From: Tubulanus polymorphus
Lineage: Eukaryota > Animalia > Nemertea
Reading direction: 5' to 3'
Length of the DNA: 64,000 nucleotides
Assembly (NCBI RefSeq): GCF_964204645.1
Contig: NC_134036.1
Span: 8,222,812-8,286,811 of the forward strand
The notes below the pieces were generated by a model. It ran no database searches and had not been told where the DNA came from. It saw only the letters and a list, made by a program, of their open reading frames with translations. The translations under genes were made by a program, and so were the position numbers. Positions 29,326 to 48,559 of the stretch are shown one piece after another (within the stretch, counting starts at the first letter, position 1; each line of letters opens with the position of its first letter).

Positions 29326-29838
29326 GAAGGATCTTCACTCGAACGATATACGATATTTTCCGACAATACAAAAGAAAAAAACAGTCCAAAAGTCTTCCCA
29401 CGAGCTAATATTTGATTCAGCATTGATTTGATATATATTTATATCGTATAAATTCGATGTATTAATTCGATTCCGAACTGGGCTCAAGTCCGATATACGT
29501 CGAAATAGAGCGTTATGCTTAAAGTCAACTGAGTAAATCGGCTGTTTATCTGTAATTGTGGTCGGCAGGTAGACACTATATGCAATACGTCGTGAACTGT
29601 CGATGTGAGCATTCCTTTACTTTTGCACTGTATAGTGTATCCAGGAAGAAAGACACTAAATATTTGGATGGATATATGAAAGCTGTGGGTACTGGAGTGT
29701 GTAATGGGTAGTGTAGTGTGACCTGTGTGCATTTGTGGCCAACACCAAACATTGTTCATTGGGGTTTGGTCCAGGACTCACGAGATTTTCAACAACACGG
29801 AAGTAACGTGTAATAAATGATGACTTGAATTGCGTGAC

Positions 29839-30258
29839 TACCTACCACCCCTCACTATTGTTGGAAAACTAAATGTTCCGCACTGACTAAAAATTAGTAA
29901 TAACATTTTAGAAATGGCCAGAATTTTAACTTAGGTTCTATCTCATTTTTATTTTACAATTGCGATTGGTATAATTTTTTTTTTAAACGGCCGTTAAGGC
30001 TTCATGTTTCGTCTGCAATTCACTGCAAATAGTTACGCAACTACGCACATTTCAGTGTTTTTGGCAGCTGTACACTCAATGGACACCGTTCGTGACTAGC
30101 TTCACTGCGGAATTATCATTAATTAACATGGCCATATCACATCATCAACTTATATTGTGCATTAAAACACTAACAGCCGAAATAATTGAAATGCACACAC
30201 GATTTCTATCATTGAAAATTGAGAGAGTGACCATGTTTGTGTTCTGCTGCTTCGCGTA
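29839..30258 (+). repeat. Left part of the host repeat interrupted by the Polinton (continues at 47441-47490)
   Basis: High identity to 20536-20954. Confidence 0.88.
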
Positions 30259-30348
30259 AGTAATTAGAAAAGTGGGGTTTCATACCAGAGGGCGAGAGGG
30301 CGAGACACCACTCATCACCACAAGTAATTTTTTTTCCTAATAAATGGG
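30259..30348 (+). repeat. Left TIR (contains promoter motif and ATG of ORF 30344)
   Basis: AGTAATTAGAAAAGTGGGG...GTAATTTTTTTTCCTAATAAATGGG; reverse complement of 47351-47440. Confidence 0.95.
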
Positions 30349-30670
30349 AGATAGAAAAGCATTCTTAGCAACAATAAATAACAGAATAAAACCAGCAAAA
30401 AAACAATTTGAAATAAAAAAGTTAGTTGATGTTACAAAAGAAATTGAACATAAGATATTGAAATTAGAAAAGATAAAAACTAAATATGGAGAGAAAGTAT
30501 CAGCTAATTTAAGCTACTGTAATGTTAGTACATCACGAGAATTTAAAGTGTTTTTACCCGATAAATGGGTTTCATTGAGTATGGAGGAATTGAAAGATTT
30601 AATAGGATTTAAAATAATATATCATGGGAAAAATGAAGACGGTCATCATGATTTAGAAATTGTTGATTAA
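30344..30670 (+). CDS. Polinton hypothetical protein (108 aa; possibly OB-fold ssDNA-binding)
   Basis: ATAAATG start; a diverged homolog at 21421-21762 supports coding status. The fold is a guess from the beta-rich TKYG pattern. Confidence 0.75.
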   Translation: MGDRKAFLATINNRIKPAKKQFEIKKLVDVTKEIEHKILKLEKIKTKYGEKVSANLSYCNVSTSREFKVFLPDKWVSLSMEELKDLIGFKIIYHGKNEDGHHDLEIVD

Positions 30671-31675
30671 ATAAAAAATAAAAATAATGAATATCTAGAA
30701 TCCAAAATGACCTTAGTCGTTTTATAAACAACTACAATCATACAGTACATCTGTTACATGTTATTATAAGAGAGTGCTTCATTTGAATATTGATCAATCA
30801 AACAGGTGTTGCACAACGTTGTTGTTATATAATAAGCACGTAGTACATACAACACACACAAACCAGTTAGCTGGTATTGAATTACTGCGTTTTCATTGGT
30901 TTCTGAAAACGAGGTTTATTTAAATTAGCTCGGCCGTGACGATAGGAGGATAGTCATCATTCTCTCGTGATTAAAAGGAATATTTCAATGTTTTTACGGT
31001 AAGTTTTAGCAAAACCACCCGACTTGACTCACAGAGTTTTTAGGGGATAAGCATCCCGTTATTGAGAGGCGCCACGAGATACCTATCCCCAAGCATTTCT
31101 ACTTACACCCCTGTGACCCACACCTCACCAATTCTCCTTCAATGGTTGACAGGAAACACATTATATTAAAGGCGCCTAATGCATTTCCTATCAACCCCTT
31201 ACCCCCGAAAGGAGGATCGAAAGTCGAAACTGAAGGAGAACCACGGAGGGTGGACAAAGGTGCATTTTCGAAATGCCCCTGCAAGCCAAGCCCGGCGGCA
31301 CTCCAGTGGTTGAATGAATTGCCTTATATACTTAGCTAAAACACCTAAGTAAATGTTGTTGGTGCTAAAAAAATATGTGAAATTTGAAATTATAAATTAT
31401 TCCGAATGAAAAGAATGTAAGAATGAAAACTGAAAAATGAATTATGTATTTTCAACTTAATTATGATATAATTTTTAATCAAATTAGTAATCAATTACTA
31501 TGTTAATTGATTAACAAATTCAAATTCAAATATTCAAATAAAAACAAAATAAATTAATAAATATAATGAATATCTAGAATCCGAAATGACTTATCTGGAC
31601 AATTTAATTGCTCCGCATAGATAGACAAAAGTAGTGAGATATTCAATTATTTTTTTTTGCTTTTTTTCTAAAATA

Positions 31676-32044
31676 TTAATCCATTTTTTTTATTATCAAT
31701 TTTGGAATTTCAGAAGTATTTTCATTTTTGATAGCAGTTGTTTCAGAATTACTAATATCATGAATTTTATTTGATTTCTTATACCAATTACACCCAATCA
31801 AAATGAATACAATTACAAATCCAACTGTAAAATATAAATATTTATCAAATATTCTATTATCAGAAGGAGTAGAAATAACAATATTTTCACCATTTTTATT
31901 AACATTTCTATTACTTATTTTTTCTTTTACAGCTTTTTTATATTCTTGTGATTTAATTCCTAATTGCCGAGACCATTCAATTTGTTTCTGAGTTCTCGGT
32001 TTTTTCTTCACAGTTAATTCCTTCACTTTTTTCACTTCGCTCAT
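31676..32044 (-). CDS. Polinton hypothetical protein with basic N-terminus and one TM helix
   Basis: ATAAATG start; hydrophobic YLYFTVGFVIVFILIGC. Confidence 0.7.
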   Translation of the reverse strand: MSEVKKVKELTVKKKPRTQKQIEWSRQLGIKSQEYKKAVKEKISNRNVNKNGENIVISTPSDNRIFDKYLYFTVGFVIVFILIGCNWYKKSNKIHDISNSETTAIKNENTSEIPKLIIKKMD

Positions 32045-32582
32045 TTATTATAGAAATATTTTTACTTTCAATATTTGAAAATGTTATAACTCCAGTTGAT
32101 AATAATGTCATAAATCCACCTAATTGAAATGATAAATATCCAATCCATTTATTTAATTCAGTCATAACTAAATAATCATTTTTTAAATCGAAATATAATC
32201 TATTTTCATCTTCAATTGGTAGTATATAATTACATAATTTACTATAACCTTTTACTACATTTTCTGATATCGCGTCATTAATTCTAGCTGTTCTCGCGGC
32301 TTCATAAATCTTAAATAATCTAATAATTTCATCTGATTTCATTGTGTCTAATTCATTATAAGTTAAATTTTTACTGACAAAATTTTTACATTTTCCAGAT
32401 GCTATTAATATTTCTAATTGATGTTTACAATAAAGATAATATTCATAATTATTATTTGTTGTAACATTATTTAAAGCACCATCATCTGGAATTAATTTTG
32501 TTTCTGTTATTCCTAAATCATCTAAAGTTTTTTCAATTGGAACATCACCATTTTTAGATTTTATTTTCTTTTCACCTACCAT
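31977..32582 (-). CDS. Polinton hypothetical protein (201 aa)
   Basis: TAATTTTTTT-N6-TAAATG start motif; long ORF in AT-rich DNA. Confidence 0.75.
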   Translation of the reverse strand: MVGEKKIKSKNGDVPIEKTLDDLGITETKLIPDDGALNNVTTNNNYEYYLYCKHQLEILIASGKCKNFVSKNLTYNELDTMKSDEIIRLFKIYEAARTARINDAISENVVKGYSKLCNYILPIEDENRLYFDLKNDYLVMTELNKWIGYLSFQLGGFMTLLSTGVITFSNIESKNISIINERSEKSEGINCEEKTENSETN

Positions 32583-32615
32583 TTATATAACAAAAAAATT
32601 AATTGTGTGATGTTG

Positions 32616-32770
32616 CAACTAGAATTTAACTAGAATGTAACTAGAATTCAACTAGATTAACAAGCTAGTTGAAATATTGTTAAATCTAGTTGATTTTTGT
32701 TTCAACTACTAACAACTAGAATTCAACTAGAATGTAACTAGAATTCAATTAGATTAACAAGCTAGTTGAA
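32616..32770. repeat. Intergenic array of direct and inverted CAACTAG(AAT) units
   Basis: Repeated (C/T)AACTAGAAT ~11-mers plus inverted CTAGTTG, arranged as two blocks. Confidence 0.85.
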
Positions 32771-32771
32771 T

Positions 32772-33380
32772 TTAAATAAATTCATATTTAAATGGGTGTT
32801 GTAATCTAAATAGTAATTTTGATCTTTTAATATTTTTCAACTTATCCATATATTCATTATGTAAATCATGTGGAATAATATCATTTTCCTCAAGTGCATT
32901 TTTCATTGATTTTCTATCTGCATTGTTGAATAAAACTAGAAATCTAATGTTTTCTCTAAAGTCTTTAACAATTGAATTATATTTTTGATTTAAAACCCAA
33001 GTTGTTATCCCAAAATGTCTCCCAGAGAAAGCTAAATAACATAACTCACTTTCTCTAACTTTTGAATCATGTAAATTTGCACAATCATCTATGATAAATA
33101 ATGTATTTGATCCTTTATAAATATCAATTGCTATTTTTATACAATTATCTAAATTTTCTTTTACTGTTTTAGGATCTAATATAATAAATTTATTATTTCT
33201 AGTAATATTTCTATCATAAGTTTGATTAAATTCATATGTTGGACAAAATAATACTATATTATCAAAATAGTTTTTGTAAACAGTTTCTAATAAATTTAAT
33301 ATAAAATAAGTTTTTCCACAATTTGTTACACCAGAAATTAACATATTATGAGGCTCAAATATGAATAATTCCTTATTCAT
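32772..33380 (-). CDS. A32/FtsK-HerA-like genome packaging ATPase
   Basis: Walker A GVTNCGKT, Walker B LFIIDD, SGRH motif, LNQ. Confidence 0.9.
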   Translation of the reverse strand: MNKELFIFEPHNMLISGVTNCGKTYFILNLLETVYKNYFDNIVLFCPTYEFNQTYDRNITRNNKFIILDPKTVKENLDNCIKIAIDIYKGSNTLFIIDDCANLHDSKVRESELCYLAFSGRHFGITTWVLNQKYNSIVKDFRENIRFLVLFNNADRKSMKNALEENDIIPHDLHNEYMDKLKNIKRSKLLFRLQHPFKYEFI

Positions 33381-34508
33381 TTATATATTTTTAATTTTAC
33401 TTGATAATATCCATTCATTGAATTTATCTGGCCATCCAACCCATTTTACTAAAGAATATTTTTTTCTTTTAATAGTTTTTGTTTTTAATACTTTTTCAAT
33501 TTTATATTCTTGTTCTAGATTTTCAGTAGTTAAACTTAATTCTTCTTCATAAAAGTAACCATCAACTTCTTCACCATCTAAATCTTCTAATTAATAGACA
33601 TATGGTTTTGTTGTTATTACCTTTTTTATTTTATATATTTCTCTAGTAAAATTTCGATCGTATCCTTTGTCAAATATCTTTTTATACTTAGAAATTCTAA
33701 CATTTTGACCAACTTTAAATTTAGGTTCACCAAAATCATCTATAAGAAATGCTCCATATAAATTATTCCAAACAATTTCAGCATTTTCAGATTTTCTAGC
33801 ATCAATAGGTTTCATTCCAATAGAAGAATGATAAGAATTATTATATCCTTCTATCAATTTTGGTAAAACATCAATCCATTTAAAAGTATTATTTGCTGTA
33901 AAATATTTCCACATTCTTGTTCTTAATGTTCTATTAAATCGTTCAACAACTGCTGCTTTTTTATCTGATTTTGTTGAAAAATATTTAATATTATGATTAT
34001 CTAAGAGTTCATGAACAAGTGAATTATCAAATTCTTTTCCATCATCAAATTGTATTTTTTCTGGTTTTAGTTTATCATCCGAAAGAAATTTTCTTAAAAC
34101 ATGTGATGTTTGTGCAGCATCTTTTCTATAAAGTGGGAAGCTCCATACATAACGACTAAAAATATCAATTATATTCAATAACCACCAATAATCATCATTA
34201 TCTTTCTTAACATTTTTCATATCAATTAAATCTCCTTGCCACTGTTGATCTACATAACTTACCATAGTTTTACGAGTTTTATATTTTCTAACAATTTTTT
34301 TATGTGTTGTATATGTTGGTTGTTCTAACATAAATTCATTTATATCTTTATATTTAACTAAATTTTGTGGGATTATCTTATCTAATTTATCTTGTTTTAC
34401 TTTACGCCATATATTTTTAGTAGAAGAATAAGCAACCGAACTCTCAGGGTTGTAATATAAATTTCTTAAATATTGTTCTTTAGTATTAGGAGTTTTTTTA
34501 CCACTCAT
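33381..34508 (-). pseudogene. rve (retroviral-like) integrase with C-terminal chromodomain, interrupted by in-frame TAA at 33591-33593
   Basis: WQGDLID, IDIFSRY, QFDDGKEF, VVERFNRTLR. After the stop the frame continues LEDLDGEEVDGYFYEEEL...YKIEKVL...LVKWVGWPDKFNEWI to TAA at 33381. Confidence 0.9.
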
Positions 34509-34538
34509 TTATATATCCTTAATTTTAACTTTATATTT

Positions 34539-35786
34539 CTAATATTGAATACTATCTAATTGTGAATTTACAATATTTAATTGCGCGTCAGATATAATAT
34601 AAATGTGCATTTTAAAATTTTTGATTCCTTTTTTCTTTGTTATGAATAATTGTATTCCATCTTTTGTATTTTGTAGTTTTTTCCCAGAACCATGTAATGA
34701 ATTATCTTCAGTTGTTCTAAAATCTAACCATAATGCATATTTATTACCGGTATAATAATCAATTTGATTAATGTTACAATTTTCAAATGATTTTACTTTT
34801 TCATTCATAAAATGTTTTTTAATTTCTACCCATTGATCTATCATTCTCATTCCTTGACAAAATATTTTATTTGCTATTCCTTCGATAGTTATTTCTACTT
34901 TTGTTATTTCAGGATTATAATAATTGTCAACATTTATTGCACCATTAGTATATGTTCCAATGGTAAAAAATATTAATATACCTTTAATAGATCTTCTTGG
35001 GAAGTTAATATTCTCATTAATTATTTCATCATTTGCATTAATAGTTACAGTTTTAAATTTATCAATATAATCATATAATAATGAAAACCCTTGATTGTAT
35101 TGAGTTTGAATTATACTTGAAATATTTTCATCAGTTACTGTATCATATTCTAAACATATATTCGATAATTTATAACTCATATCTTTATTAACGCTAGATA
35201 ATACAATTTCATTTACAGGAGCAAATGTTATCTCAAATATAATATCTTCTTGAATTGCGTATTTATATAAAGGTGCATTATTATTTATCAATTCAAAGTC
35301 TAATGGAATTTTATATTTGCTTCCATATATACTTTTTATCAATCTATCTACATCATTTGTTAATATTGCGCTATTAGCTTCTGATCTTAATTTATTTTGG
35401 TTTTCTGATTGAATTCCTTGAAATATCATATTATTTCTATTTTCTTTAGTTAACCATAAATCTTTATAATGCATAAATAAATTATAATCATCTAATGAGA
35501 AAACTGTTTCTGGACCAATCTTTATTGTTAACTTTTTAATCAAATATCTCCCAACATTATCAACAACATAATTATTATTATTACCGATTACTTTTATATC
35601 AGCTGATAAATAAATACTATTTGGAACATAAAAAGTATTTTGTGTTAATCTAGGAATTCTAACGTATAAAGTTTCATCGGGATTAATATTTGAAGGGTTG
35701 TGAGTAATTATATGATGTGATCTTTCTGCTTTAATAGCATTAGATATTCTAGAAATCTTAGAAGGACTTATATAACTCCCACTCAT
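34539..35786 (-). CDS. Putative double jelly-roll major capsid protein
   Basis: 415 aa, beta-strand-rich pattern typical of Polinton/PLV MCP (YKIPLDF, LSNICLEYD, YALWLDFR); context within the element. Confidence 0.7.
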   Translation of the reverse strand: MSGSYISPSKISRISNAIKAERSHHIITHNPSNINPDETLYVRIPRLTQNTFYVPNSIYLSADIKVIGNNNNYVVDNVGRYLIKKLTIKIGPETVFSLDDYNLFMHYKDLWLTKENRNNMIFQGIQSENQNKLRSEANSAILTNDVDRLIKSIYGSKYKIPLDFELINNNAPLYKYAIQEDIIFEITFAPVNEIVLSSVNKDMSYKLSNICLEYDTVTDENISSIIQTQYNQGFSLLYDYIDKFKTVTINANDEIINENINFPRRSIKGILIFFTIGTYTNGAINVDNYYNPEITKVEITIEGIANKIFCQGMRMIDQWVEIKKHFMNEKVKSFENCNINQIDYYTGNKYALWLDFRTTEDNSLHGSGKKLQNTKDGIQLFITKKKGIKNFKMHIYIISDAQLNIVNSQLDSIQY

Positions 35787-35823
35787 TTATTTAACAAAAA
35801 AATTAATTATTTATTTTTTGATA

Positions 35824-37260
35824 TCATGGTTCACTTGATATTTTTGATATCATATTTACTAAACCAAAAATAATAGCACTTACAACTGTAATTAAAAATA
35901 AAATAATATGTTCAGCAGCAAAGTTAATAATGTTTCCTGCAGATTTCAATATAAAACCAACAATTGAAGCAATAACTCCTGGTAAAGCTGCAGCAGATTT
36001 CTTTGATAGTTCCCATAAATATTTTGCTAATTTCTTTAAACCATCCTTTACTTTATCTTGTATAGAATTATTACCTGGAGGTTTATCTGGTTTATTGGGA
36101 GTAGGAGTAGATTTTAATGAATTTGAAATAGCTAAACCAATTGTTGTAAATAACATAGTTACAGCTGTTACAATTGAAAGAATTGTTATACCTTCTAATT
36201 TAAATAATAATCTTATTCTGTCTTTTAATGATATTTCAGAATCTGGTTTTATCAACAAATCTTTAAAAATAACTTTTAATCTATTAATATTATAATCATA
36301 TGATTTTAACAATAATTTAATTTCTTCTTTCTGTACTTCTAAATTATCTTTTAAATTACTAATTTCTTTTTCTAAACGTAATTCTTTTTGCCTATATTCT
36401 ATTTCATCAATTACTTGATGATCTAAATCAGACTTTAATTGTTCTATTTCTTTATTTTTATCAGTTAATTCTTTTTCCAAATACGTAATTTTTTGATCTC
36501 TTATACTTTTATTATATGCAATTTTATCAGATGCTAGTTTTATACTAATAATTTCTCTAATTGCTTTATCAGAAAATATATCTAAATCTTCTAATTCTTG
36601 ATATGTTGCATCAAGTAATCCATTTGGTAAAAGTTTTTCAGTTTGAACTTCTCTTGAATTAGGTTTACTAGTTTTGGAATTAATAACTTCTTTAGGAATT
36701 TTTTTTTGTCTTAAATTTGCATTAATTATATCAAAAAATTTAGCATTTCTTTGTTTAAATTCTTTTAAATTATAATCTCTTTCTTCTTGTGTAACATCGG
36801 TTATAACATCATCAATGATTTTCTTAATTCTATCTGGTTTAAATAAATTAAAAGTTGATTTTGTTATTATTTTATCACCACTTTTAAGATTTAAAATCTT
36901 AAAATAATAGTCGCCTTTCAATTTCCAATAATAATCACCATTTAAATATTTTAAATCTTTTACTAAATAATTCATACCTTTATTTGTTATATTGAAACCA
37001 GATCTTTTTAATATTGGTTTAAATTCATGAATAATTTCATTATAATTGTATTCTTTTTCTGTTATTTCTGGTACTTCATTTTCAATACTTATCTTTGAAC
37101 GTGCTTTGTCAATATATTGAGGTGTAGTTAAATTAGAATTATATGCTGTTTCATTACCATCATTAAAACTTGTTTCATCAAAATCAGGTGGTTGTTCATC
37201 AGTTATACCAGGTTCATCAAAAGGATCCATTCCAATATCTTCTACACCTTCTACATCCAT
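35824..37260 (-). CDS. Coiled-coil protein with C-terminal hydrophobic/amphipathic helices (putative membrane protein)
   Basis: Acidic N-terminus, heptad region, TM-like ITILSIVTAVTMLFTTIGLAI, Pro linker, amphipathic and hydrophobic C-terminus. Confidence 0.8.
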   Translation of the reverse strand: MDVEGVEDIGMDPFDEPGITDEQPPDFDETSFNDGNETAYNSNLTTPQYIDKARSKISIENEVPEITEKEYNYNEIIHEFKPILKRSGFNITNKGMNYLVKDLKYLNGDYYWKLKGDYYFKILNLKSGDKIITKSTFNLFKPDRIKKIIDDVITDVTQEERDYNLKEFKQRNAKFFDIINANLRQKKIPKEVINSKTSKPNSREVQTEKLLPNGLLDATYQELEDLDIFSDKAIREIISIKLASDKIAYNKSIRDQKITYLEKELTDKNKEIEQLKSDLDHQVIDEIEYRQKELRLEKEISNLKDNLEVQKEEIKLLLKSYDYNINRLKVIFKDLLIKPDSEISLKDRIRLLFKLEGITILSIVTAVTMLFTTIGLAISNSLKSTPTPNKPDKPPGNNSIQDKVKDGLKKLAKYLWELSKKSAAALPGVIASIVGFILKSAGNIINFAAEHIILFLITVVSAIIFGLVNMISKISSEP

Positions 37261-37276
37261 TTATATAATAAAAAAA

Positions 37277-38665
37277 TTAAAATTTAAAATATAATATTCC
37301 TCCGATTACAATTCCTATACAAGTTATAGCTAATTTAGTATTTTCATGGGATTTATTATCATTATCAGTTTTAATTATATCATGTTGAATTTTATCAGTT
37401 CTATTATTTTCTGATGTATTGTAATCTTTTATTTTAGAATCATTATTTAATTTAATATTCTTAGTTTTAGTTTCAGTTGATTGAATGTGTTTTTTATTTT
37501 TATCACCTTCCATTAATTTTGGAGCAGTAATAATCTTTTTATTTATATCATTTAATCCAAATGAATTATTTATTGTTGCAGTTTTAATTAGATTATTATA
37601 ACCAATTATGTTTCCCATCTTTAATACTAAATCATTAGAAATAATTAATAGATTAGGGCCTATACAATAATTAAGTCTTACATGAGATTTATCTAAATAA
37701 TTTTGATATCTTATAATGTTTTCTGGAATCGATCTATTTTTATCATCATGTATGGAATCTTCAAATAATACTTTGAATTGTTTCTGTGTATCAAATGATG
37801 TATTCAAATTTCCAATTATCGGTGATCTTGTTTCAACTTGTGATCCTAGAATACATATCAAATAAATTCTAATAGATTGATTTATTCTTTCTATACCTGA
37901 TTTAGTAAAACCTTCACTATTTTCTAAAATAAAATAAACCCAACCATTATTGTTTTCTTGTTTTAAATTATCATAAAATTTTGGTAATTTATTGAAATTT
38001 AATGTTTCTAAATCCTTTGTTTCTATTTTACCATAACCTAATTTATTATTATAGATATTATAAAAACTATTAGATGGTATGGGAAGTGCACAATATTCTG
38101 CAATCTTTCTAGGGCATGGAAGTTATCTTATTGTTCCAATTTTTGTTCTAAAATCAGAATTATTTATATCTATATTAAATTCATTGCAAATTTTATAAAA
38201 CTTTGATAAATTAATATTATTATCTAATTCTTTAAAATATCTAGATCCTGGTAAAGCGCACTCTAATTCATTTAATATTATTCTGATTTGAAAGTATGTA
38301 TGAAATCTAAATAAACTTTGAATTAGTTTATATTTAGAATTATTCAAATGATCATTCCAACTAATTCCACAACCTGTTGTTGCACAATAAACAGCAAAAT
38401 TTAATTGATTCTGCCAATACTTCATATTAGATTTTAATAACCATTGTTTTTCATCTTTCAATTTTTTAAAATTAATTAAATATACATGAAATATATTTTC
38501 CATCTTTGCATTAAAATTATTAGTTTCAGTAACATAAATATATAAATTAGTTAATGAATCTAAAACTTCATTTCTATATGTAATATCTTTATTAAAATCT
38601 ATTGCTGGAATATTATATTTAATTGATTTATTATATTGGAAAGCTTTTGGAAAACTATCTACCAT
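37277..38665 (-). pseudogene. Single ~462-codon Polinton gene with C-terminal TM anchor, split by in-frame TAA at 38123-38125
   Basis: The frame stays open from 38122 into ORF 37277-37861 (87 codons, LPCPRKIAEYC...GWVYFIL). Only the 38665 start has the ATAAATG motif. Confidence 0.8.
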
Positions 38666-38681
38666 TTATATAATTAAAAAA

Positions 38682-39116
38682 TTAATAATTTATTAATTCT
38701 TTTAATAATTTATCTTGTTCTTCAACTGTTATATGACCATTTAAACTTATTATATAATCTAGTGTGTTCTTTAATTTATTAATTTCTTTTATATTAGTTT
38801 TAATTTTTTCTTTATTACTTTTTATATTTAATTTTGAACTTATACCAGTTAAAACACTTGAACTTAATCCTAATACACCAATTGATATAGCTAAAGGTGT
38901 TAATGGACTGAATATTGCTAAAAATGTTATTACAGAACTAATTGTAACCGAACCACTTATAATCAAATAATATATAATTTTACTTTTTAAATATTTTTTC
39001 TTTTTTATCTTTAAGTCACTTTCAAATTCTAATATTTGTTTTTCTAAATATGTTTTTAATTTAGTTTTATTTATATCATGAGGAATAATATCAATACTAT
39101 CAACTTTATCTTCCAT
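38682..39116 (-). CDS. Two-TM hypothetical protein (144 aa)
   Basis: Start motif; two hydrophobic segments flanked by charged helices. Confidence 0.75.
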   Translation of the reverse strand: MEDKVDSIDIIPHDINKTKLKTYLEKQILEFESDLKIKKKKYLKSKIIYYLIISGSVTISSVITFLAIFSPLTPLAISIGVLGLSSSVLTGISSKLNIKSNKEKIKTNIKEINKLKNTLDYIISLNGHITVEEQDKLLKELINY

Positions 39117-39135
39117 TTATTTAGAAAAAAAATTA

Positions 39136-39558
39136 CTAATTAGTAAACTTATAAGCAACAAATATAACAATAACTGTTCCACCTAAAATCCAAATTATTT
39201 CATATTTCTGTTGTTCTTTACTTGGGGTATAATAATCTGATAATTTAGGTTTGTATAGATGTAATTTTTCTTTATTGGTTACCGCGTTATATAAACTCAT
39301 TGCATCATCAACTGATTGAAAATCTCTATGTGAAATCTTCTGATCATATAATTCTTTATTGATGTAATCCATATAGTTTTGTCTCTTTTCTCTATATTCT
39401 TCTGCAGCTTTATTGTATTTCTCTAACGCTAAGTTATGTCTTCTTTGTTCTCCTAATGAACTATTTTTATCAATATGTTTAAATAAATAACCACCACCAG
39501 TAAATGCTAAAGCGTTAACAATTGCCGATCCTATAATAGTTATAATTGCAGAAGCCAT
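39136..39558 (-). CDS. Hypothetical protein with hydrophobic N-terminus and C-terminal TM (140 aa)
   Basis: Start motif; MASAIITIIGSAIVNALAFTGGG and IIWILGGTVIVIFVAY. Confidence 0.78.
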   Translation of the reverse strand: MASAIITIIGSAIVNALAFTGGGYLFKHIDKNSSLGEQRRHNLALEKYNKAAEEYREKRQNYMDYINKELYDQKISHRDFQSVDDAMSLYNAVTNKEKLHLYKPKLSDYYTPSKEQQKYEIIWILGGTVIVIFVAYKFTN

Positions 39559-39582
39559 TTATTTAGCAAAAAAATTACGCAT

Positions 39583-39804
39583 TTATATGGGAGGAATATA
39601 TTTTTGTTTTTCCAAATAATCAATTGTTAAATTAGATAAAGTAACTGCTAACGTTAACTTTAAAATATCATTTATATCAAATCTATCAACATTAACACTT
39701 CCCATTTTGAATACTTTTTTTAATACCATTGAATAACCAACAGTTCCAACTGATAGTAATGCACCATTATATAATCCAGTTATTATCCACTTATTATCAC
39801 TCAT
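39583..39804 (-). CDS. Small hydrophobic hypothetical protein (73 aa)
   Basis: Start motif GTAATTTTTTTGATAAATAAATG; tightly packed between neighbours. Confidence 0.7.
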   Translation of the reverse strand: MSDNKWIITGLYNGALLSVGTVGYSMVLKKVFKMGSVNVDRFDINDILKLTLAVTLSNLTIDYLEKQKYIPPI

Positions 39805-40146
39805 TTATTTATCAAAAAAATTACTATCATCAAAATATTTAGTTAACTTATTTATGATTAATTCAACATTTATTTCATTACTAGTTTTATGATTATCATA
39901 TATTTTGGATAATATGTTTTTAATATCTTCAATAATTCCATCTTCATTTAATTCATAATATTCTAATGGTGATTTAATTAAATCAATTACTTTTTCTATA
40001 TTATACTTTTCTTTATCAATCATTGATGCATTGTTAAATGATTTACTTTTTATATCAGTAATGACATCATTTAGTTTAATTCTCATTTCTTTACTATGTT
40101 TAAAATCAAACCCAAAACATATACTCTGTCCAACAGTTATATTCAT
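39805..40146 (-). CDS. Hypothetical protein (113 aa)
   Basis: Start motif; its TAA abuts the next ATG. Confidence 0.7.
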   Translation of the reverse strand: MNITVGQSICFGFDFKHSKEMRIKLNDVITDIKSKSFNNASMIDKEKYNIEKVIDLIKSPLEYYELNEDGIIEDIKNILSKIYDNHKTSNEINVELIINKLTKYFDDSNFFDK

Positions 40147-40163
40147 TTATATAGTGAAAAAAA

Positions 40164-40916
40164 TTACTCTCTACATCTTATAACTAATTCATAAATTACA
40201 GGGAAATTATTTAAATCAATTAAGTATCCATTATGATTTCTAATTTCTAATCTAAAATTATTAAAACGAGAAATGCATGGTTTGAAATCACATTCTGTTA
40301 AATTATAATTTATTTGCGTTCCAAATTCTTTAACATTCTTCAATGGTAAAATGTTTAGTAAACCAGAATTACAAGTTATATCTTTAGTTGCTTCGAATGT
40401 TTTTGTAGGATCAATTAAATTGCAATAAATATAAAAATGTGTGTAAGGTATCAAGTTTGGTGTAGCATCAACATTTGAATAAAGTTTATCTGGTGTAATT
40501 CCTAACAGTTTAGCTATAGGTTTTTTAACTAAAAATTGATATTTTTCACTACGAGTTAACCTAATCCTTATTTTATCAGAACTATCACTTTTTAAAAATC
40601 TAATACTAAACCCGGAATTACTACCTAATTTGTGCCAGGCTTTTCTATTAATTTCTTGTGACAATGTATCTAAATTATATAACCCTGGTTTTAGATATAA
40701 ATGATACCTTTTATTTTTTTCCTGAACTATAAACAATTGATGATCAATAGTTTTACCCGTTATATTATAAAAAGAATTACATAAACTTATATTAACTAAT
40801 TTTAAATCTACACAATTCTTAAATTCTCTATCTAATTGTACTAGTAAATTATGAGATTTATAATTTGTAAGTCTTCTAGAATCAACAAATATTCTGTATT
40901 CTTTTAGTTCTACCAT
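40164..40916 (-). CDS. Putative minor capsid (penton, single jelly-roll) protein
   Basis: 250 aa with IFVDSR, LKPGLYN, FYIYCNLI, LLNILPL and LEIRNHNGYLIDLNN patterns typical of Polinton/virophage pentons. Confidence 0.72.
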   Translation of the reverse strand: MVELKEYRIFVDSRRLTNYKSHNLLVQLDREFKNCVDLKLVNISLCNSFYNITGKTIDHQLFIVQEKNKRYHLYLKPGLYNLDTLSQEINRKAWHKLGSNSGFSIRFLKSDSSDKIRIRLTRSEKYQFLVKKPIAKLLGITPDKLYSNVDATPNLIPYTHFYIYCNLIDPTKTFEATKDITCNSGLLNILPLKNVKEFGTQINYNLTECDFKPCISRFNNFRLEIRNHNGYLIDLNNFPVIYELVIRCRE

Positions 40917-40984
40917 TATTTATAACATAAAAAAATTACCGCTCATCACTAAAAATTAATTTTAATAAAATTTTTCCTTAATAA

Positions 40985-42286
40985 ATGGATGAGAAGATAG
41001 CATGCGAAATTTGTGGTGAACTTCTAAGAAAAAGTAATATGGCTCGACATATGAAAAAACATAATGAAAATTATAAACCCCCTAAAATAAACTGTCCAAA
41101 TTGTAATAAAACATTCTCTAGAAATTATTTCAAAAAACATTTAGAGAAGTGTAGAATTAATGGTGCAACAGCTAATGTTGATAATAATTCTGTTGAAGTT
41201 GAACCTGAAATCATTTGGAAAAGACCTTTCTTATTCTATGATAAGGATAATATAAAAGATCATTTCTGTGAGCCTTGTCGAATAAAATATAACCCTGAAA
41301 ATATAGAAGATTGGGAGAATCATCAATTTCGTAAAGCACATATAGATAAAATTTCTAATAAATTTGAAACTGAATTCAATGAAAGAAAAAATAATTTATT
41401 AGAAAAAATAAAATATGAGAAAACGTTACCAGATAATGAAGAAACAGTTGAAAAGTTAGAAAAACAATATAATGAATTAACAAGAAAAACATATTATTGT
41501 AAATATTGTAAATTGATTATTACAACAAGTAATTCAAATCTACATAATAGAACAATAAAACATAAAGAAAACGTAAGAAAATACCAAGAGCTTAATGAAG
41601 ATCTATTACCAAGAAATTATAAACAAAAATGCCCACAATGTAGTTATGCGACCTTAAGGCAAGAAGGTACTGTGTTATTTTGTGTTGATTGTGGATGGCA
41701 AAAGAATTTATGGGATGAAGAAAAAACTAGAAATTTTCTTATAGATCCAAAATTAAATTATCTTGATGAAATTTTTAAAATATTTTCTATAGAAGATCAT
41801 ACACCAGAATATATGCAATGGCTTGAAAAAATGAAAATAATAGAAAATAAAAATGGTGAAATAACTAAAAAAGATATTATAAAAACCATTATTCCACCAA
41901 CATTTAACACAAAACAAAAGAAAATGTATTTATATTTATTATTTAACGATTATTATGAAAAACCTAAATTAACAGAAGAAGATATGAAAAATATAAAAAA
42001 AATATTCAAACAAATATTAATGTATCATTTGGAAAATAGAATAACAGATTCAATAAATTATGAATTCTTTTTAAATAAGATTGTAAATTATTTAAACCTA
42101 GATATTATAATTCCATTTGATGAATTAACAAACAAAAAGAAACAAAGAGAGCGAGATGAAATGTGGAACAAGATAGAACTTTATTTAAATGAGAAAAATG
42201 GAATGGAAGAAGAACCTGAACAATTAAATGAAAATGAAGAAGCTAATAGTGATTTCGAGTATGATGATATTGATTTTATGTTTTAA
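40985..42286 (+). CDS. Multi-zinc-finger protein fused to a poxvirus A2/VLTF3-like late transcription factor domain
   Basis: N-terminal C2H2-type fingers, zinc ribbon CPQC-x13-CVDC, then KLTEEDMKNIKKIFKQ...SINYEFFLNKI...DEMWNKI resembling VLTF3 (by recall). Confidence 0.72.
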   Translation: MDEKIACEICGELLRKSNMARHMKKHNENYKPPKINCPNCNKTFSRNYFKKHLEKCRINGATANVDNNSVEVEPEIIWKRPFLFYDKDNIKDHFCEPCRIKYNPENIEDWENHQFRKAHIDKISNKFETEFNERKNNLLEKIKYEKTLPDNEETVEKLEKQYNELTRKTYYCKYCKLIITTSNSNLHNRTIKHKENVRKYQELNEDLLPRNYKQKCPQCSYATLRQEGTVLFCVDCGWQKNLWDEEKTRNFLIDPKLNYLDEIFKIFSIEDHTPEYMQWLEKMKIIENKNGEITKKDIIKTIIPPTFNTKQKKMYLYLLFNDYYEKPKLTEEDMKNIKKIFKQILMYHLENRITDSINYEFFLNKIVNYLNLDIIIPFDELTNKKKQRERDEMWNKIELYLNEKNGMEEEPEQLNENEEANSDFEYDDIDFMF

Positions 42287-45200
42287 TGGCCATAAGGTAA
42301 TGTTTTTATACCATCATCTGAAATATGCCTTTTATCATCAAATGGATTTAAAGTAGTTTTTTCAACTTCATTAATGTACATCTCATGATCTTCTGATCTT
42401 AAACAATTCATCTTGTGTTTCATTACAATTGAGTTATATAAACACTTTATATAATCTTGAAATTCTATATGTTTATCAACCACATGTTTTGTTATTCCTT
42501 TTAACTTTTTAGCTTCATGATCTTTTGTTCTGTAACTATACATTTTACTTCTTATCCCAACAAATTCAATCATTTCATCACCTCCTAATTCATCTTTAAA
42601 TTTACCAGGAATCTTTTTATTATCATTACTAAACAATTCATGATCTTTGGGGTAATTGCTAAAGTCGAAATAATGTTTCAATGTTTTTAAGTCTTTTGTT
42701 ATATCATTTGTCTTGATTTTTAGTATGTAACTGTCAGTATTTTTTTGGATTAATGGGAACCCAGAATTGAATGTTCCATCATCTGTTGATAAATCATAAA
42801 CATAGTCAGTTGGGTTATATATTTCAAATAAATCTTTAACTTCTTCTGTTAATTCTTTTTCTACATGCCTTAAATTAAAACAATTTGGTTTAGATTTAAT
42901 TAATTCTATATTCATATTAAATCCTAATGAACAGAATAATATATTTAATCCTGATATAGCCACTTTTCCTTTCTGTGCAAAGGTTATCTTTTTATCCTTT
43001 GTAAATTTTTTAGTACCATCGGCTGCGTAGAACCCAATGAAGAACCATTTTCTTAAATTATTTTTTGCATTTAATACATAATCTGGAACTATCTTTTCTT
43101 TTGTTGAAGTATTACTTTTCACTATTGCATGAATATAGAATTCATCATTATATTCTATAGCAAAATCTTTAGGATTATTTACAAGTATTCTATAAACTGC
43201 TGATGATTTCATAACATCCATGATTCTAAATGTTTTATGTGAATAAACTTCTTCACAGAATTTCTTAATTCTTTCTAATAATTTTAAGTCTTGATTGCAT
43301 AAATACCAACAATATTTATTACCCCAAACATATTTATACACACCTGCTGAACCATCACCCATGAAAAATCCTTTGATAAAATATTCTTTTTCTTCTAATG
43401 TTTCAGGTTCTATATTATAAATATTACCAATTATTTCATCAAATGACATATGATTCATTCTTGGGAAAAATCTTTTATGTAATAATTCATCTCCAATTTT
43501 TATATCAGTTGGTTTTATTTCATCACCATTTCGTTTAATTAAACTGTGGTCTTCAGTAACATCTACAAACCCTAATTTAGTTCTAACTCTATAGATTTTC
43601 TTATTTGTTTTATGTCTAATAATATTCTTTAATTTTTTCCATCCATTTCTTGTCCAAACATCCATTAAACCATTTATTTGTATTAGTTCTTTTTCACCAT
43701 ATGAAATATAAGATTTATTTTGATTAGGAATAATTTCTGAAATTCTTCTAATTAATATTTGGTTATTGTATTTTAATAATATTGGGGTGTCAGCTGTTAC
43801 AGAATCGAAGTATAGAATTTCTATATGTTTTTCCCCAAACAATGGTTGTAATACATTGTAATAAAAATCATACATTAATAATTTTGATATTTCTAAAACT
43901 GTTGAACCAATGAAAATGGGTTTATTAAATTTCATTGACGTTCTTTTTAATTTTACTGCTGTTAAATAATCTTCAAATCTTTTATTTCCTAAATGTCTAG
44001 GACTTGATTGTAAATGTCTTAATCTTTCAGAATTATTTACTAATTCAATATCATTTCTATTTCTAATATTTTCACAAGTTTTTCCATAAAAACTATTGTT
44101 CATCAATTTAAAAAAATCTTTTTCGAAATCAGTTTTTGATATGGTTCTCTGTTGAGTATTGAAATCTATATATTTTTCTAACCACTTCGATTGATTAAAT
44201 TCAATATATCTATGTACTTTCTTTAATTTCATTCCTTGTTTTAGATAAAATTTTAACATTCTATAATGAACAATATAATTATATTTATTATTTTGAGTAA
44301 GTATTAATTTTTCTGTAAAAACATGATCTTTTGGTTTTATTTTCTTCTGGTATTCACTTAAATAACTATCATCTACAGTTAAATGTTCTGGGCAATAAGG
44401 TAAGTTTCTTGTTTTAAACTTTATATTTTCAGGATATTCTAAATCAACTACAAAGAAATAACCAATTGGTGCTTCATCTTTTAAACTCGCAATTGCGCTT
44501 TCCCAATCAGTTTTATCATCACTTTCAACTTCTGTTAATATAAAATTTTTATATGGTTGAGGTTGCATCATTGCCCAACCATATAAATTATTGGCGTCAA
44601 TATATAATAATTTATATTCATCATTTGCTTTAAAATACCTATCTCCCATAACACCACTAATTCCACCTCTAATTGATTTTTCAAATAATAAAACCATATC
44701 TGGTTCTTTTAATAAATCTAATTCTACATTTGTATATTTTAAACCACATTGCCAGGTTAAACCAGGACTTGAATAACAATAACAAGGGTCAACATTAAAA
44801 TGGTTTAGATTAACTTCTCTAAACTTTTCAAATATATCTGCCAATATCATAACATCTGATTTTAAATATAAATCAACTAATTCGCCATGATTTTTCATCT
44901 TAAAATGGTTCCAAATATTTAATGTTCTATCAAAAACTTCGTCTTTCACATACTCCTCTTTTAATTTATCATAAAATTGATCTTTTAATAATTCTGTTAC
45001 ATTAAAATCATTGTGTGTTTTATAAAATGAATAAGGAATTGCACCTTTATATCTCAATAATTTAAAATCTTGGTCATTTGGATAATAATATCGAGTTATA
45101 ACAAAATCATTATCAACTAAACTTTTTGATAAATTATCTAATGAACTTGCTAGAAATCTATAAGAATCTAAAAATCTAATGCAACCAAATTGAAATGAAA

Positions 45201-47355
45201 TATAATTTTCAGATGTTTTAGCTAATAGTTTAAAATCATATTTTCTTACATTTACACCATTCATAGCATTATATTCTTCTATTTCTTGATTAATTGCGCC
45301 CAATTTTCCTGATAATTGTTTTATAAATAGATGGGTATCATATCCTGATAAATTATGAAATAATATTGGTACGAAATTTACTTTTTTAGCTTGTAAATTG
45401 CAATCTTCATGAGCAGCTCCACGATATTTTGAATTTAAATGATTATGATCTCTAACTTTTTTATCAAATGAATAAAAACGTTTTTCACAGTAACAACAAT
45501 GAGTTGCATAATTAAAATCAATTTCATCTTCTTTTGTTATAACTATTCTTTTATTTTTGTTTAATAATTTTGCAAAATCACTTTCTAATTCAATCATTTT
45601 ATCACAAAAATCATTAACTACATTTTCACCTCTAAAAGAAATATATTGACTTTCATATAATTCGGGATAATTTGATTTTATATAAATTCCATAAGCAGCA
45701 GCTCTTTGATGAACTTTTTTAATTGTATTTATAATTGGTGGGTCTTGTATTGTGTCTTCATTTAATTCATTTCCTTTATCCATTGATTTTAATAATTGCT
45801 TTTTGTTATATATTTCTTTTCTATCTTGATCAGTTAATTCTTTATTCAACGATTCAAAATCCCCATAAATTACAAATGGAACAATATTCTTAAATTTATG
45901 ATTAGTAAATTTCAATTTATAATCTTTTTCTGTTGGCATTATTAATTTACAAAAATCTTTATTATCACATAATTCTTTATGTTTTAATAATGTATTCTCA
46001 GTCATAAATTTAGATAAACATTTTCTACATAGATAAATTTTACGATGATGATCACTTTCTGTTGTTCTAAAGAATAAATCAATTTGTTTTAACCACATAT
46101 AATGTTCATTTTCATCTTTTTTGTAATATAACAAATCTATAGCATTTTCATCATCATAATATTCTGTTAAATATAAAGCTTCCAATGTATAATCTTTAAT
46201 ATTTTCACCTTTTGTCTTTGGTAATTGCATTAATTCAAATACATTTATTTTTAAATTATTAATTTTTTCTATTTTAGGAATCATTTTTATAGTTACTGGA
46301 TATTGATCAATTTTATATAATGTTTCATATTTCCGGTAATTTGTTATTCTAAAACTATGCGTCATATCTTCTGTTTGGTGTAAACAACTAATAATTGACC
46401 ATAGAAAACATTTATTATCTTCATTTTGAACATTTATTACTGCTTTTGTTGTAAATGGTAATTTAATATAAGATGATGCTTTAATATCCTTTTCTGTTGT
46501 AAAGTTTGAATCATTTTTAAACATTTTATTACTTTTTGATGTTTTATTCCTTTTTGTATTATAAACATTTAAATCTAAATATATAATTTCATTCAATGTT
46601 AAGCCAGAACCCTCAAAATATCTTTCTTCAATATGACGTTTAAATTCATTTAATATTTTTTCTAACTTCTCTTTTATTTGTGTTTTTGAAATTATTTCTT
46701 CAGAGTGTGTTTGAATATTATAATTCATTTTTTCTTCTGACTTTATAAAACTTACTTTCCCAGAGATACTAATTTTTGGATATTCAACATCTGTTATCAA
46801 ATCTAGTAATTTTTCTATTATTTCATTAAATGTACTATAATCTTCTATTGTTGTACCTTTAAAAAATCTAAATATAATAGCTGCAGGACCAATTTTACTA
46901 TGTAATGTTTCTAAGATTTCAATTGTATCTTTTATTTCTAGTGAATCAATATAATTTCTAACATTTTCCATGTAAGGTTTATTTGAAATGGATTTAGTTT
47001 TTGAAGTTGATTCTTTTACTTGTTGAGGTTTATTATCAAAATATTCTAATCCTAAAACATTTTTATTTAAATTTTTATAATGTTTTTGTGATTCGAGATG
47101 TCTATTATAATTCCTTTTTACTATAAATTCATTACAAACTTCACATTTTATTTCATCCACATTCATATTTTCTAATCGTTCTTTTCTTTCATTAGAATTT
47201 TCTGGAGTTTCAAAATCTATTACATTTTTTATATGATTTACAGTTTTTTCATGTCGTGTTTTATGAGATGTATCGATGTATTTTTTACAATATTGACAAT
47301 AATATTGATTTTTATTGACATTATTGTTTTCTAGTTGGTGTTCATTCTCCCCCAT
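42283..47355 (-). CDS. Protein-primed family B DNA polymerase (pPolB) with N-terminal Zn fingers, OTU-like and HNH/EndoVII-like domains and an intein
   Basis: Exo motifs YGDFES, FHNLSGYD, YLKSDV; polymerase motifs YIDANNLYG, KLMNNSFYGK, YFD/TDS. NEDNKCFLWS (OTU-like Cys); CCYC...VRDHNH...GAAHEDCN (EndoVII-like). Confidence 0.95.
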   Translation of the reverse strand: MGENEHQLENNNVNKNQYYCQYCKKYIDTSHKTRHEKTVNHIKNVIDFETPENSNERKERLENMNVDEIKCEVCNEFIVKRNYNRHLESQKHYKNLNKNVLGLEYFDNKPQQVKESTSKTKSISNKPYMENVRNYIDSLEIKDTIEILETLHSKIGPAAIIFRFFKGTTIEDYSTFNEIIEKLLDLITDVEYPKISISGKVSFIKSEEKMNYNIQTHSEEIISKTQIKEKLEKILNEFKRHIEERYFEGSGLTLNEIIYLDLNVYNTKRNKTSKSNKMFKNDSNFTTEKDIKASSYIKLPFTTKAVINVQNEDNKCFLWSIISCLHQTEDMTHSFRITNYRKYETLYKIDQYPVTIKMIPKIEKINNLKINVFELMQLPKTKGENIKDYTLEALYLTEYYDDENAIDLLYYKKDENEHYMWLKQIDLFFRTTESDHHRKIYLCRKCLSKFMTENTLLKHKELCDNKDFCKLIMPTEKDYKLKFTNHKFKNIVPFVIYGDFESLNKELTDQDRKEIYNKKQLLKSMDKGNELNEDTIQDPPIINTIKKVHQRAAAYGIYIKSNYPELYESQYISFRGENVVNDFCDKMIELESDFAKLLNKNKRIVITKEDEIDFNYATHCCYCEKRFYSFDKKVRDHNHLNSKYRGAAHEDCNLQAKKVNFVPILFHNLSGYDTHLFIKQLSGKLGAINQEIEEYNAMNGVNVRKYDFKLLAKTSENYISFQFGCIRFLDSYRFLASSLDNLSKSLVDNDFVITRYYYPNDQDFKLLRYKGAIPYSFYKTHNDFNVTELLKDQFYDKLKEEYVKDEVFDRTLNIWNHFKMKNHGELVDLYLKSDVMILADIFEKFREVNLNHFNVDPCYCYSSPGLTWQCGLKYTNVELDLLKEPDMVLLFEKSIRGGISGVMGDRYFKANDEYKLLYIDANNLYGWAMMQPQPYKNFILTEVESDDKTDWESAIASLKDEAPIGYFFVVDLEYPENIKFKTRNLPYCPEHLTVDDSYLSEYQKKIKPKDHVFTEKLILTQNNKYNYIVHYRMLKFYLKQGMKLKKVHRYIEFNQSKWLEKYIDFNTQQRTISKTDFEKDFFKLMNNSFYGKTCENIRNRNDIELVNNSERLRHLQSSPRHLGNKRFEDYLTAVKLKRTSMKFNKPIFIGSTVLEISKLLMYDFYYNVLQPLFGEKHIEILYFDSVTADTPILLKYNNQILIRRISEIIPNQNKSYISYGEKELIQINGLMDVWTRNGWKKLKNIIRHKTNKKIYRVRTKLGFVDVTEDHSLIKRNGDEIKPTDIKIGDELLHKRFFPRMNHMSFDEIIGNIYNIEPETLEEKEYFIKGFFMGDGSAGVYKYVWGNKYCWYLCNQDLKLLERIKKFCEEVYSHKTFRIMDVMKSSAVYRILVNNPKDFAIEYNDEFYIHAIVKSNTSTKEKIVPDYVLNAKNNLRKWFFIGFYAADGTKKFTKDKKITFAQKGKVAISGLNILFCSLGFNMNIELIKSKPNCFNLRHVEKELTEEVKDLFEIYNPTDYVYDLSTDDGTFNSGFPLIQKNTDSYILKIKTNDITKDLKTLKHYFDFSNYPKDHELFSNDNKKIPGKFKDELGGDEMIEFVGIRSKMYSYRTKDHEAKKLKGITKHVVDKHIEFQDYIKCLYNSIVMKHKMNCLRSEDHEMYINEVEKTTLNPFDDKRHISDDGIKTLPYGH
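42739..43803 (-). other. Intein (355 aa) with LAGLIDADG homing endonuclease in pPolB motif C
   Basis: YFD|SVTADTP...VTEDHSL (block B)...IKGFFMGDG...FIGFYAADG...YVYDLST...LIQKN|TDS; excision restores YFDTDS. Confidence 0.93.
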
Positions 47356-47440
47356 TTATTAGGAAAAAAAATTACTTGTGGTGATGAGTGGTGTCTCGCC
47401 CTCTCGCCCTCTGGTATGAAACCCCACTTTTCTAATTACT
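47351..47440 (-). repeat. Right TIR (contains promoter motif and ATG of pPolB)
   Basis: Perfect inverted copy of 30259-30348. Confidence 0.95.
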
Positions 47441-48559
47441 CGCGTAAATCCCGCGCGGTGGTGCAACCGCGTGGAGTGGGGCCGATACGTATAGGTCTAT
47501 GAAACTGTCGAACAATCGACAGGTACAAAATGTTTTCAAAATCATATTACAATAAAATTATGTTGTTGTAATTCTTGGTATCGTTTCAAATTATTTTTAT
47601 TCATGTCTTTTGCTTGCGCCTGCCACCGATTTTCAGAGGTTTTTAGAAAACAAATCTCAAAGGCCAATATTGTTTGCCGACTTGTAATCGATTTTGAGGA
47701 CTACAACCACATGACGATCTCAAACACAAACAAATTGGTCTCAAAGGAAATTTGAAGAAAATCTTTATTATTAACAAATAAAAACGTCTACCCGGTACGT
47801 CAGGTTTCACTTAATCATTATATCAATAATCGCGTGTGTCTTCAAAGATCATTCGCGGTATGAACTAATTCAGAATATAGTTTCCGGACGTAACCTAGCA
47901 CTGGTTCTGATGATGATACAGAACTGGCCTGAACAGAACTATGTATTCATCCTGCCGTTATTGTAATAGATATATGTTGTGCGCCAACATTCATTTATCG
48001 GGTTTTAATCGGCTCGTTTTACTCTGTTGCCGTCCTTGGGAATTATGTAGGCATGTATATCTCACTTCATTTTTTGTTCATCGCAATATAGGGGCCGGTT
48101 GCACAGTCACGGCTTACACTTAAGATCAGTCTTAGACCATCTTAGTTCACTAGCCAATCAAACAACTCGACACAAGTCTTACGAATCAAGACCACTTTTG
48201 GTGTCAAACCACCACTGTGCAACTGGCCCCGGGCAAATCTATTTTATTAATCCTTGGACGTCGTCATCCCAAAATCTGAGCTAAGGGCGCTTTTTAAGAA
48301 TGTCTAAAAGAATGTCTGGGGCCAAACTGCCCCCTCCAAGCCAGGAAACCTGTACCGGTACACGATCTGTTGATACAAATACGCTTTTCCTTGTTTATGT
48401 AATGCGCTGCCCTTGGACATGATAGCAGTTGATGATATCGTTCACGCATTAAAAAACTTAGTTAACGTGGTTATGATATATATTATATATGAGGCCATGG
48501 AAAGATCGCGCAGTACAAGAGAGTTATTGGTATATCGCTTATTACCCATCCGTTACCGA

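Follow-up and report, generated by a model that had tools for sequence, protein, structure and literature searches.

The window analyzed here, 64,000 nucleotides of the nemertean Tubulanus polymorphus (contig NC_134036.1, positions 8,222,812 to 8,286,811 of the forward strand), contains an integrated Polinton whose DNA polymerase gene is divided by an intein (Table 1; in the motifs below a slash marks the insertion point). Ends of the form AG...CT with a 6-bp target duplication are the rule in the Polinton/Maverick family, and the element resembles its members in these ends, in its protein-primed family-B polymerase (pPolB), rve integrase and A32 ATPase, and in its capsid candidate, while differing from them in the intein of its polymerase, in having no protease recognized by Pfam and in the TAAATG that starts nearly all of its genes. 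GC content is 24% inside the Polinton and 39% in the flanks. The capsid candidate has a Capsid_N match at E 0.01 and Atlas look-alikes at 0.97-0.98, some with PF21738 or PF16903 on 10-24% of their members, the recognition value of which is low; no ORF could be assigned to a minor capsid protein. No Pfam match to a cysteine maturation protease was obtained in the 15 element ORFs (of 16) that were scanned, the capsid genes of a related element having likewise escaped Pfam, and an Rfam scan of the element returned nothing credible. Positions 30952-31370 are GC-richer, contain no long ORF, have no Rfam match and are flanked by near-identical 35-nt repeats (at 30677 and 31556), and positions 32572-32770, in the gap that separates the ATPase gene from the following ORF, hold 11-nt tandem repeats in two near-identical blocks.

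Table 1. Features of the integrated element, its polymerase and the intein, with positions in the window.
Feature	Position	Strand	Basis or remark
Whole Polinton, 17,182 bp	30259..47440	.	inverted ends, target duplication, genes
Left terminal inverted repeat, 93 nt	30259..30351	+	starts AG
Right terminal inverted repeat	47348..47440	-	99% complementary; contains polymerase ORF start
Target-site duplication CGCGTA (6 bp), left copy	30253..30258	+	
Target-site duplication CGCGTA (6 bp), right copy	47441..47446	+	
A32-type packaging ATPase	32772..33380	-	PF04665, 52.5 bits, over cut-off
Retroviral-type integrase (rve)	33591..34508	-	PF00665, 42.2 bits, over cut-off
Candidate double-jelly-roll major capsid protein, 415 aa	34539..35786	-	weak matches
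Protein-primed family-B polymerase ORF, 1690 aa, uninterrupted	42283..47355	-	motifs, relatives
Intein, 355 aa, HINT split around two-motif LAGLIDADG endonuclease	42739..43803	-	translation, profile matches, fold
Ser1, N-terminal nucleophile	43801..43803	-	
Block B TEDH (T83, H86)	43546..43557	-	D85 and H86 columns conserved, 39-row alignment
D150, acidic residue of LAGLIDADG motif 1 (GFFMGDG)	43354..43356	-	
D262, acidic residue of LAGLIDADG motif 2 (GFYAADG)	43018..43020	-	
D337, block F Asp (VYD)	42793..42795	-	without subsequent block-F His
K354-N355/Thr+1, C-terminal splice junction	42736..42744	-	

TAAATG stands at the start of 14 of the 16 element ORFs, and the motif lies within both inverted ends and ahead of the polymerase. 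An upstream [AT]AATTTTTT run accompanies it at 10 sites, and the flanking 47 kb contains no TAAATG site preceded by a T run. Late promoters of poxviruses have TAAATG as their motif. The shared starts suggest a common promoter, possibly driven by a helper virus, and we offer dependence of the Polinton on such a virus as a hypothesis only. Passages of a published account describe Polinton-like viruses found together with entomopoxviruses (PMC11296320).

The flanks hold a rhodopsin-family GPCR exon over the Pfam cut-off, weaker fn3 and F5/8C matches and, at 3858-9403, a Pao/BEL retrotransposon gag-pol spread over three ORFs, and because of these features we regard the host as an animal. An earlier note on this DNA had placed a protein-primed polymerase in an animal chromosome, and the integrated Polinton with its animal-type flanks bears this out; the same note remarked that inteins are essentially unknown in animal nuclear genes, and the gene that carries this one belongs to a mobile, virus-like element and is not a host gene. 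The insertion site of the Polinton is itself a very high-copy host repeat (29640-30258 and 47441-47490), with read depth in the thousands, and farther along, at 52674-57648, four or five long plus-strand frames, partly overlapping and with no Pfam match over cut-off, may be the remains of a mobile element. Runs from two studies that carry the same species label cover the Polinton and its intein throughout; in the raw reads of the second study, depth ranges from 128 to 925 over the Polinton (bins wholly inside it) and from 157 to 230 over the intein. The lower intein value, 157, is about half that of the adjacent polymerase bins (281-334), in an element whose depth varies for other reasons. More than 1000 reads from uninterrupted copies of the host repeat connect both flanks, skipping 17,188 nt, and among the read joints listed (15 of 324) none lies at an intein border.

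The polymerase ORF retains motifs Exo I-III, Pol A, Pol B, a split motif C and KxY, together with an HNH/EndoVII-like insert near aa 636-652, and Endonuclease_7 was found in 19 of 23 relatives. The Pfam scan gave no direct match of the window polymerase to PF03175, and searching the PDB by sequence with the extein profile matched no polymerase. One relative, P0154, is 41% identical to the window polymerase over 904 columns and matches PF03175 at E 9.5e-15. The closest exteins, P0143-P0145 (72% identical), carry no insert and read YFD/TDS. Across related Polinton polymerases, motif C shows unusual variability (YMD/CDS in 30, YMD/TDS in 19, YID/TDA in 5, and others; n=68, P0143-P0260), which could reflect escape from the endonuclease.

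The intein corresponds to residues 1185-1539 of the polymerase ORF and contains no stop within its 355 aa. Its junctions, read from the ORF as ...LYFD/SVTADT... on the N side and ...LIQKN/TDSY on the C side, agree exactly with the insert splitting YFD/TDS that had been proposed for these coordinates, and the claimed Ser1, TEDH, GFFMGDG, GFYAADG, Lys-Asn end and Thr+1 are all present. The 1690 codons are unbroken, as had also been stated, and polymerase activity would presumably need splicing. The residue set of a class-1 intein is complete (S1, T83/H86, D337, N355 and T+1), and the endonuclease part carries the block-D lysine K237 beside D150 and D262. The penultimate and block-F histidines normally aid Asn cyclization, a feature that is usual, not universal; residue inspection found both missing from the window intein, which has K354 at the penultimate position. 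Of 217 pol-c relatives that could be parsed (another 7 could not), 67 show this His-less pattern, mostly in viral PolB genes presumed essential, and a KN end is found in 86 of 268 extracted inteins. The penultimate Lys singled out in the earlier note is thus present but common in the intein family, and we treat the window intein, from its residues, as a putative His-less subtype that is not excluded from class-1 inteins.

Profile and fold comparisons recover the HINT domain that had been anticipated. TIGR01445, for the intein N-terminus, is matched at 32.7 bits (cut-off 24.5) and Pfam LAGLIDADG_3 (PF14528) at 27.1 bits (cut-off 22.5); Intein_splicing (PF14890) reaches 29.6 bits, E 7e-7, under its 35.8 cut-off. 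An AlphaFold model built on a 39-row alignment has a mean pLDDT of 85.6 and was used in place of a single-sequence model of only 35.7. Its best matches among solved structures are the full-length intein-endonucleases TliVMA (E 2e-17) and PI-PkoII (E 2e-16), followed by I-DmoI and mini-inteins, and the window intein is accordingly modeled with the fold of archaeal endonuclease-bearing inteins. The intein separates the D of motif C from the T, which places it at the pol-c site, as the earlier note had proposed; YGD/TDS is the insertion site in 221 of 268 extracted homologous inteins. GC content is 25% in the intein and 23% and 26% in the exteins, so there is no compositional offset. Judged from sequence, 42739-43803 is a real pol-c intein, probably active, for which both the class of host gene and the host setting are new.

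Searching 3979 candidates with the intein yielded 272 homologues at E<=0.001, and the top full-length matches reside in Polinton-type polymerases (P0002, 63%; P0003, 49%; P0004, 46%; P0010 and P0011, 42%). By BLAST, inteins of other Polinton polymerases are the closest (46-75%), those of giant viruses and phages reaching up to 42%. Classification of the exteins of 262 proteins (120 from the first search, 140 new from the second and 2 from a further one) gave 232 delta/large-virus-like, 7 phage-type PolB-like, 7 topoisomerase-like, 8 pPolB-like and 8 unassigned. A search of shorter proteins added 38 matches, and 20 of the 21 examined were most like Polinton-type inteins; contigs of 22-328 kb carry 15 of them. 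Fragments are common among the intein-bearing relatives on long contigs. Four of the best 120 extein matches show an intein start at the site. Outside Polintons, IMG/VR contigs labeled as giant-virus genomes carry inteins 42% identical at the same site, the best named fold-search matches are PolB entries of a phycodnavirus (31%), Pandoravirus, Marseillevirus and Megavirus (27%), and the Chloropicon Pol delta intein (P0097) is a homologue at 32-36% identity. Phage records gave 2 weak intein matches and prokaryote genomes 11, all archaeal and mostly partial. The intein is absent from all 26 IMG/VR contigs with a related polymerase, Polinton genes occurred in 0 of the 117 loci fetched with the intein query, and scans with P0453 and with the capsid candidate produced no viral loci.

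The likeness to the Mimivirus PolB intein drawn in the earlier note survives in part. The intein is a same-site allele of those in archaeal and Nucleocytoviricota PolBs, in which the pol-c site was defined, with YGD/TDS there and YFD/TDS here, and in the portions of that report at hand the Mimivirus R322 intein likewise has Ser1, Asn and Thr+1, a two-motif LAGLIDADG endonuclease and a similar length, 351 aa against 355 aa (Ogata 2005, PMC549080). However, the window intein starts with SVTADTP, not SVTGDTP. A placement closest to Mimivirus was rejected, the Polinton inteins being nearer and the named comparison being the Megavirus entry from the fold search. Moreover, unlike these viral and archaeal PolBs, the window extein is protein-primed and without BLAST-detectable likeness to them, belongs to a 17-kb integrating element, and carries an intein of a clade of its own.

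That clade unites 9 of 9 Polinton-type inteins at 100/100 in a careful 51-row tree and is also found in a quick 96-row tree; one of the nine rows, P0310, has no extein and was placed by likeness, and the 62-aa P0198 was omitted. With the root on four motif-B-site inteins, that is, on another insertion site, and with RNA-primed rows that are a subset of 147 chosen toward those nearest the Polinton inteins, the Polinton clade lies several supported nodes deep within RNA-primed PolB pol-c inteins, many of them from giant-virus contigs. Keeping all 38 RNA-primed rows together was rejected (p-AU 0.008, for a hypothesis named after the tree was seen). The sister-group nodes are weak (85/57 and 82/62), and a GFPLI/GTPLI-type C-terminus common to Polinton inteins and a subgroup of giant-virus and phage inteins matches the second of them. 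Since the inteins nearest to the window's are those of other Polintons, the jump from an RNA-primed PolB would have happened once, long ago, with later spread from Polinton to Polinton, and the tree points to such a single old entry and not to a fresh Mimivirus jump. Derivation of this Polinton-wide intein lineage from large DNA viruses is likely on this phylogeny. The transfer between RNA-primed and protein-primed polymerases that had been proposed is thus broadly upheld, as an old event and not necessarily one in this animal. Target DNA of giant viruses and Polintons is identical at 9-12 of 18 core bases (12 loci), so that a direct one-step jump is not obvious, a difficulty of target mismatch that Ogata et al. 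also noted, in the part of the text at hand, for Mimivirus and archaea (PMC549080).

Comparison of the intein tree with the extein tree, which had been suggested as a check, shows rough agreement with one discordant member. In the HNH-type clade, the identities of the inteins run parallel to those of their exteins (64/61, 52/50, 45/48 and 77/80), from which residence there appears old; such tracking fits vertical descent with losses as well as it fits homing. The P0004 intein, in contrast, is about 46-48% identical to that of the window and groups within the Polinton clade at 97/89 (51-row tree), whereas its extein has no BLAST match to the window extein, which points to a lateral jump between distant Polinton polymerase families and hence to homing. 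After the extein tree had been thinned to 33 of its 124 rows, the 7 intein-bearing rows need 6 changes, which is not below the number expected by chance, 163 of 500 shuffles being as low.

Intein-less copies, whose survey had likewise been proposed, occur both in P0143-P0145 and within a single family of another genome. The P0003 cluster has 136 members; among the 15 listed, on contigs of 57-1018 kb, 7 carry the intein, 6 are empty and 2 are fragments. Between bearing and empty copies the difference is 0.30 in a 30-residue window at the site, 0.16 in the following 30 residues and at most 0.047 in the remaining 38 of 40 windows, the two groups being about 98% alike off the site. The intein-bearing copies are near-identical around the site, and the empty ones present three motif-C versions. 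At the level of protein sequence, this divergence limited to the site is what either homing with co-conversion or escape from the endonuclease would be expected to leave behind. Immediately downstream of the site, variability between Polinton polymerase families is also higher, and endonuclease-independent recombination may for that reason explain the divergence instead. With a hand-picked sister set, the intein seemed to have arrived together with downstream sequence of a sister family (86% against 55-58%); when relatives at 65-90% identity were taken without bias (68 of 74), the contrast shrank to 66% against 55-60% downstream, the upstream values being 59% against 58-81%.

We consider it quite probable that the insert is a LAGLIDADG intein in the polymerase motif C of an integrated animal Polinton, one that likely splices itself out and likely spreads by cutting empty copies. 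This reading accounts for the anatomy and site of the intein, the integration of its host element, the single nested clade and the patchy presence of the intein across Polinton polymerases. Class-1 inteins act through an acyl shift, transfer to the +1 residue, Asn cyclization and ligation. By this chemistry, Ser1 would undergo the acyl shift aided by T83/H86, transfer to Thr+1 aided by D337 would follow, and Asn355 would then cyclize. In the unspliced precursor the catalytic aspartates would be 355 residues apart; rejoining YFD/TDS would bring them together again and restore motif C. The freed endonuclease would cut the empty motif-C site of sister copies, and repair of the break would copy the intein in. 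Historically, an intein of the PolB of a large DNA virus may have passed to a Polinton polymerase once and long ago, after which it would have resided there for long, with gains and losses, and have jumped at least once from one Polinton polymerase family to a distant one; contact with a helper virus, suggested by the TAAATG starts, is a possible route for the crossing from RNA-primed to protein-primed polymerases.

Much of the same evidence could arise had the intein entered once and then been inherited vertically, with patchiness reflecting repeated precise loss or recombination and an endonuclease that no longer drives spread. The tracking of intein by extein identity in the HNH-type clade, the rough parallel between the intein and extein trees (P0004 excepted) and the matching GC of intein and exteins all fit this account. 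It nevertheless seems unlikely to us, as P0004 requires a lateral jump, both endonuclease aspartates are retained in the six full-length Polinton inteins and in P0453, and the copies of a 98%-identical family, among which three different empty alleles occur, diverge most at the insertion site. An intein that is a relic, splicing poorly or not at all in a copy that relies on intein-free sisters for polymerase, would explain the loss of both C-terminal helper histidines, the halved read depth, which fits some empty copies, and the fragmentary state of many intein-bearing relatives on long contigs. Yet the histidines are dispensed with in the viral PolB genes counted above, the polymerase ORF is intact and the depth of the element ranges widely for other reasons, and we judge a relic improbable.

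A recent and separate pick-up from a Mimivirus-like giant virus in the cells of this animal has in its favor the giant-virus contigs with 42%-identical inteins at the same site and the TAAATG starts, which suggest helper-virus dependence, and is made very improbable by the nearer inteins (63-75%) of other Polintons in the same clade, the absence of a compositional offset and the distance of the Megavirus entry. An assembly chimera, or a contaminant from outside the animal genome, is finally a scarcely credible source of the element or of its intein: the GC content is low relative to the flanks and no read among those listed spans this host-element junction, but the inverted ends match, the target is duplicated, uninterrupted copies of the host repeat link the flanks, and both element and intein are covered in the runs of two studies. 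Self-splicing and homing in an integrated Polinton thus remain our preferred reading.

Reviews state that metazoan genomes have no inteins, as expressed in the relevant passage of PMC5784728, and in the literature surveyed we found no HINT intein reported in a Polinton or in animal nuclear DNA, though supplements or Repbase entries could hold one. The nearest precedents are viral-like DNA polymerase inteins on nuclear scaffolds of Klebsormidium, Tetrabaena and a labyrinthulid, together with the Chloropicon Pol delta intein (Gallot-Lavallee 2023, PMC10710043). In the sections of that report available, these resemble the present case in placing a virus-borne polymerase intein in a eukaryotic nucleus and differ from it in that the hosts are algae and protists and the polymerases RNA-primed; polinton, maverick, animal and metazo are never mentioned in those sections. 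Polinton polymerases have also been described with selfish-type nucleases, namely HNH and VSR inserts in pPolB2 (Jeong 2023, bioRxiv 10.1101/2023.08.22.554363), and nuclease inserts in Polinton pPolBs were suggested to derive from intein invasions (Krupovic 2024, PMC11071308). The window polymerase has an HNH-like insert as well, but the pPolB2 inserts are, in the available parts of both texts, fused domains with no splicing domain described, whereas the catalytic motif of the present polymerase is interrupted by an entire HINT intein; the words 'intein' and 'LAGLIDADG' are both absent from the available text of Jeong 2023. DNA-virus inteins expressed in animal cells are represented by those of Chilo iridescent virus (cited in the accessible text of PMC549080; Iridoviridae counts in that of PMC5784728), iridoviruses being free large viruses and the window intein being chromosomally integrated, in many copies.

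The window thus offers an intact intein in animal chromosomal DNA with a whole clade behind it. The shared intein records, at the molecular level, that Polintons and large DNA viruses have been in contact, and bears on whether animal Polintons are virophage-like. Families that include bearing as well as empty copies allow the homing of inteins, and escape from it, to be tested in a eukaryotic system with many copies; the intein and its endonuclease are also candidates for use in animal cells. More tentatively, and with less than even confidence, we propose that an active Polinton-specific intein lineage may persist in animal genomes, homing between copies and families, that it may have been captured from a large DNA virus hosting Polinton replication in its factories, and that it may drive motif-C escape variation and have given rise to free-standing genes of the P0453 type. 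P0453 (as also P0456 and P0466), from a 55-member cluster and on a 116-kb contig, consists of a whole intein with only 11 residues before it and 4 after, and is possibly, from this layout, a free-standing intein-endonuclease gene.

The wider intein family shows two further patterns. P0012, P0013, P0016 and P0303 are phage-type PolBs with pol-c inteins that group among giant-virus ones (100/97, 51-row tree), and exchange of inteins between phages and giant viruses is possible on this grouping. P0006, P0083, P0102, P0114, P0117, P0120 and P0356 are type II topoisomerase-like proteins that carry the same intein family at D(Q/A)D/TDG and form one clade in the 96-row tree, which by sequence comparison represents a putative non-allelic jump to a look-alike motif.
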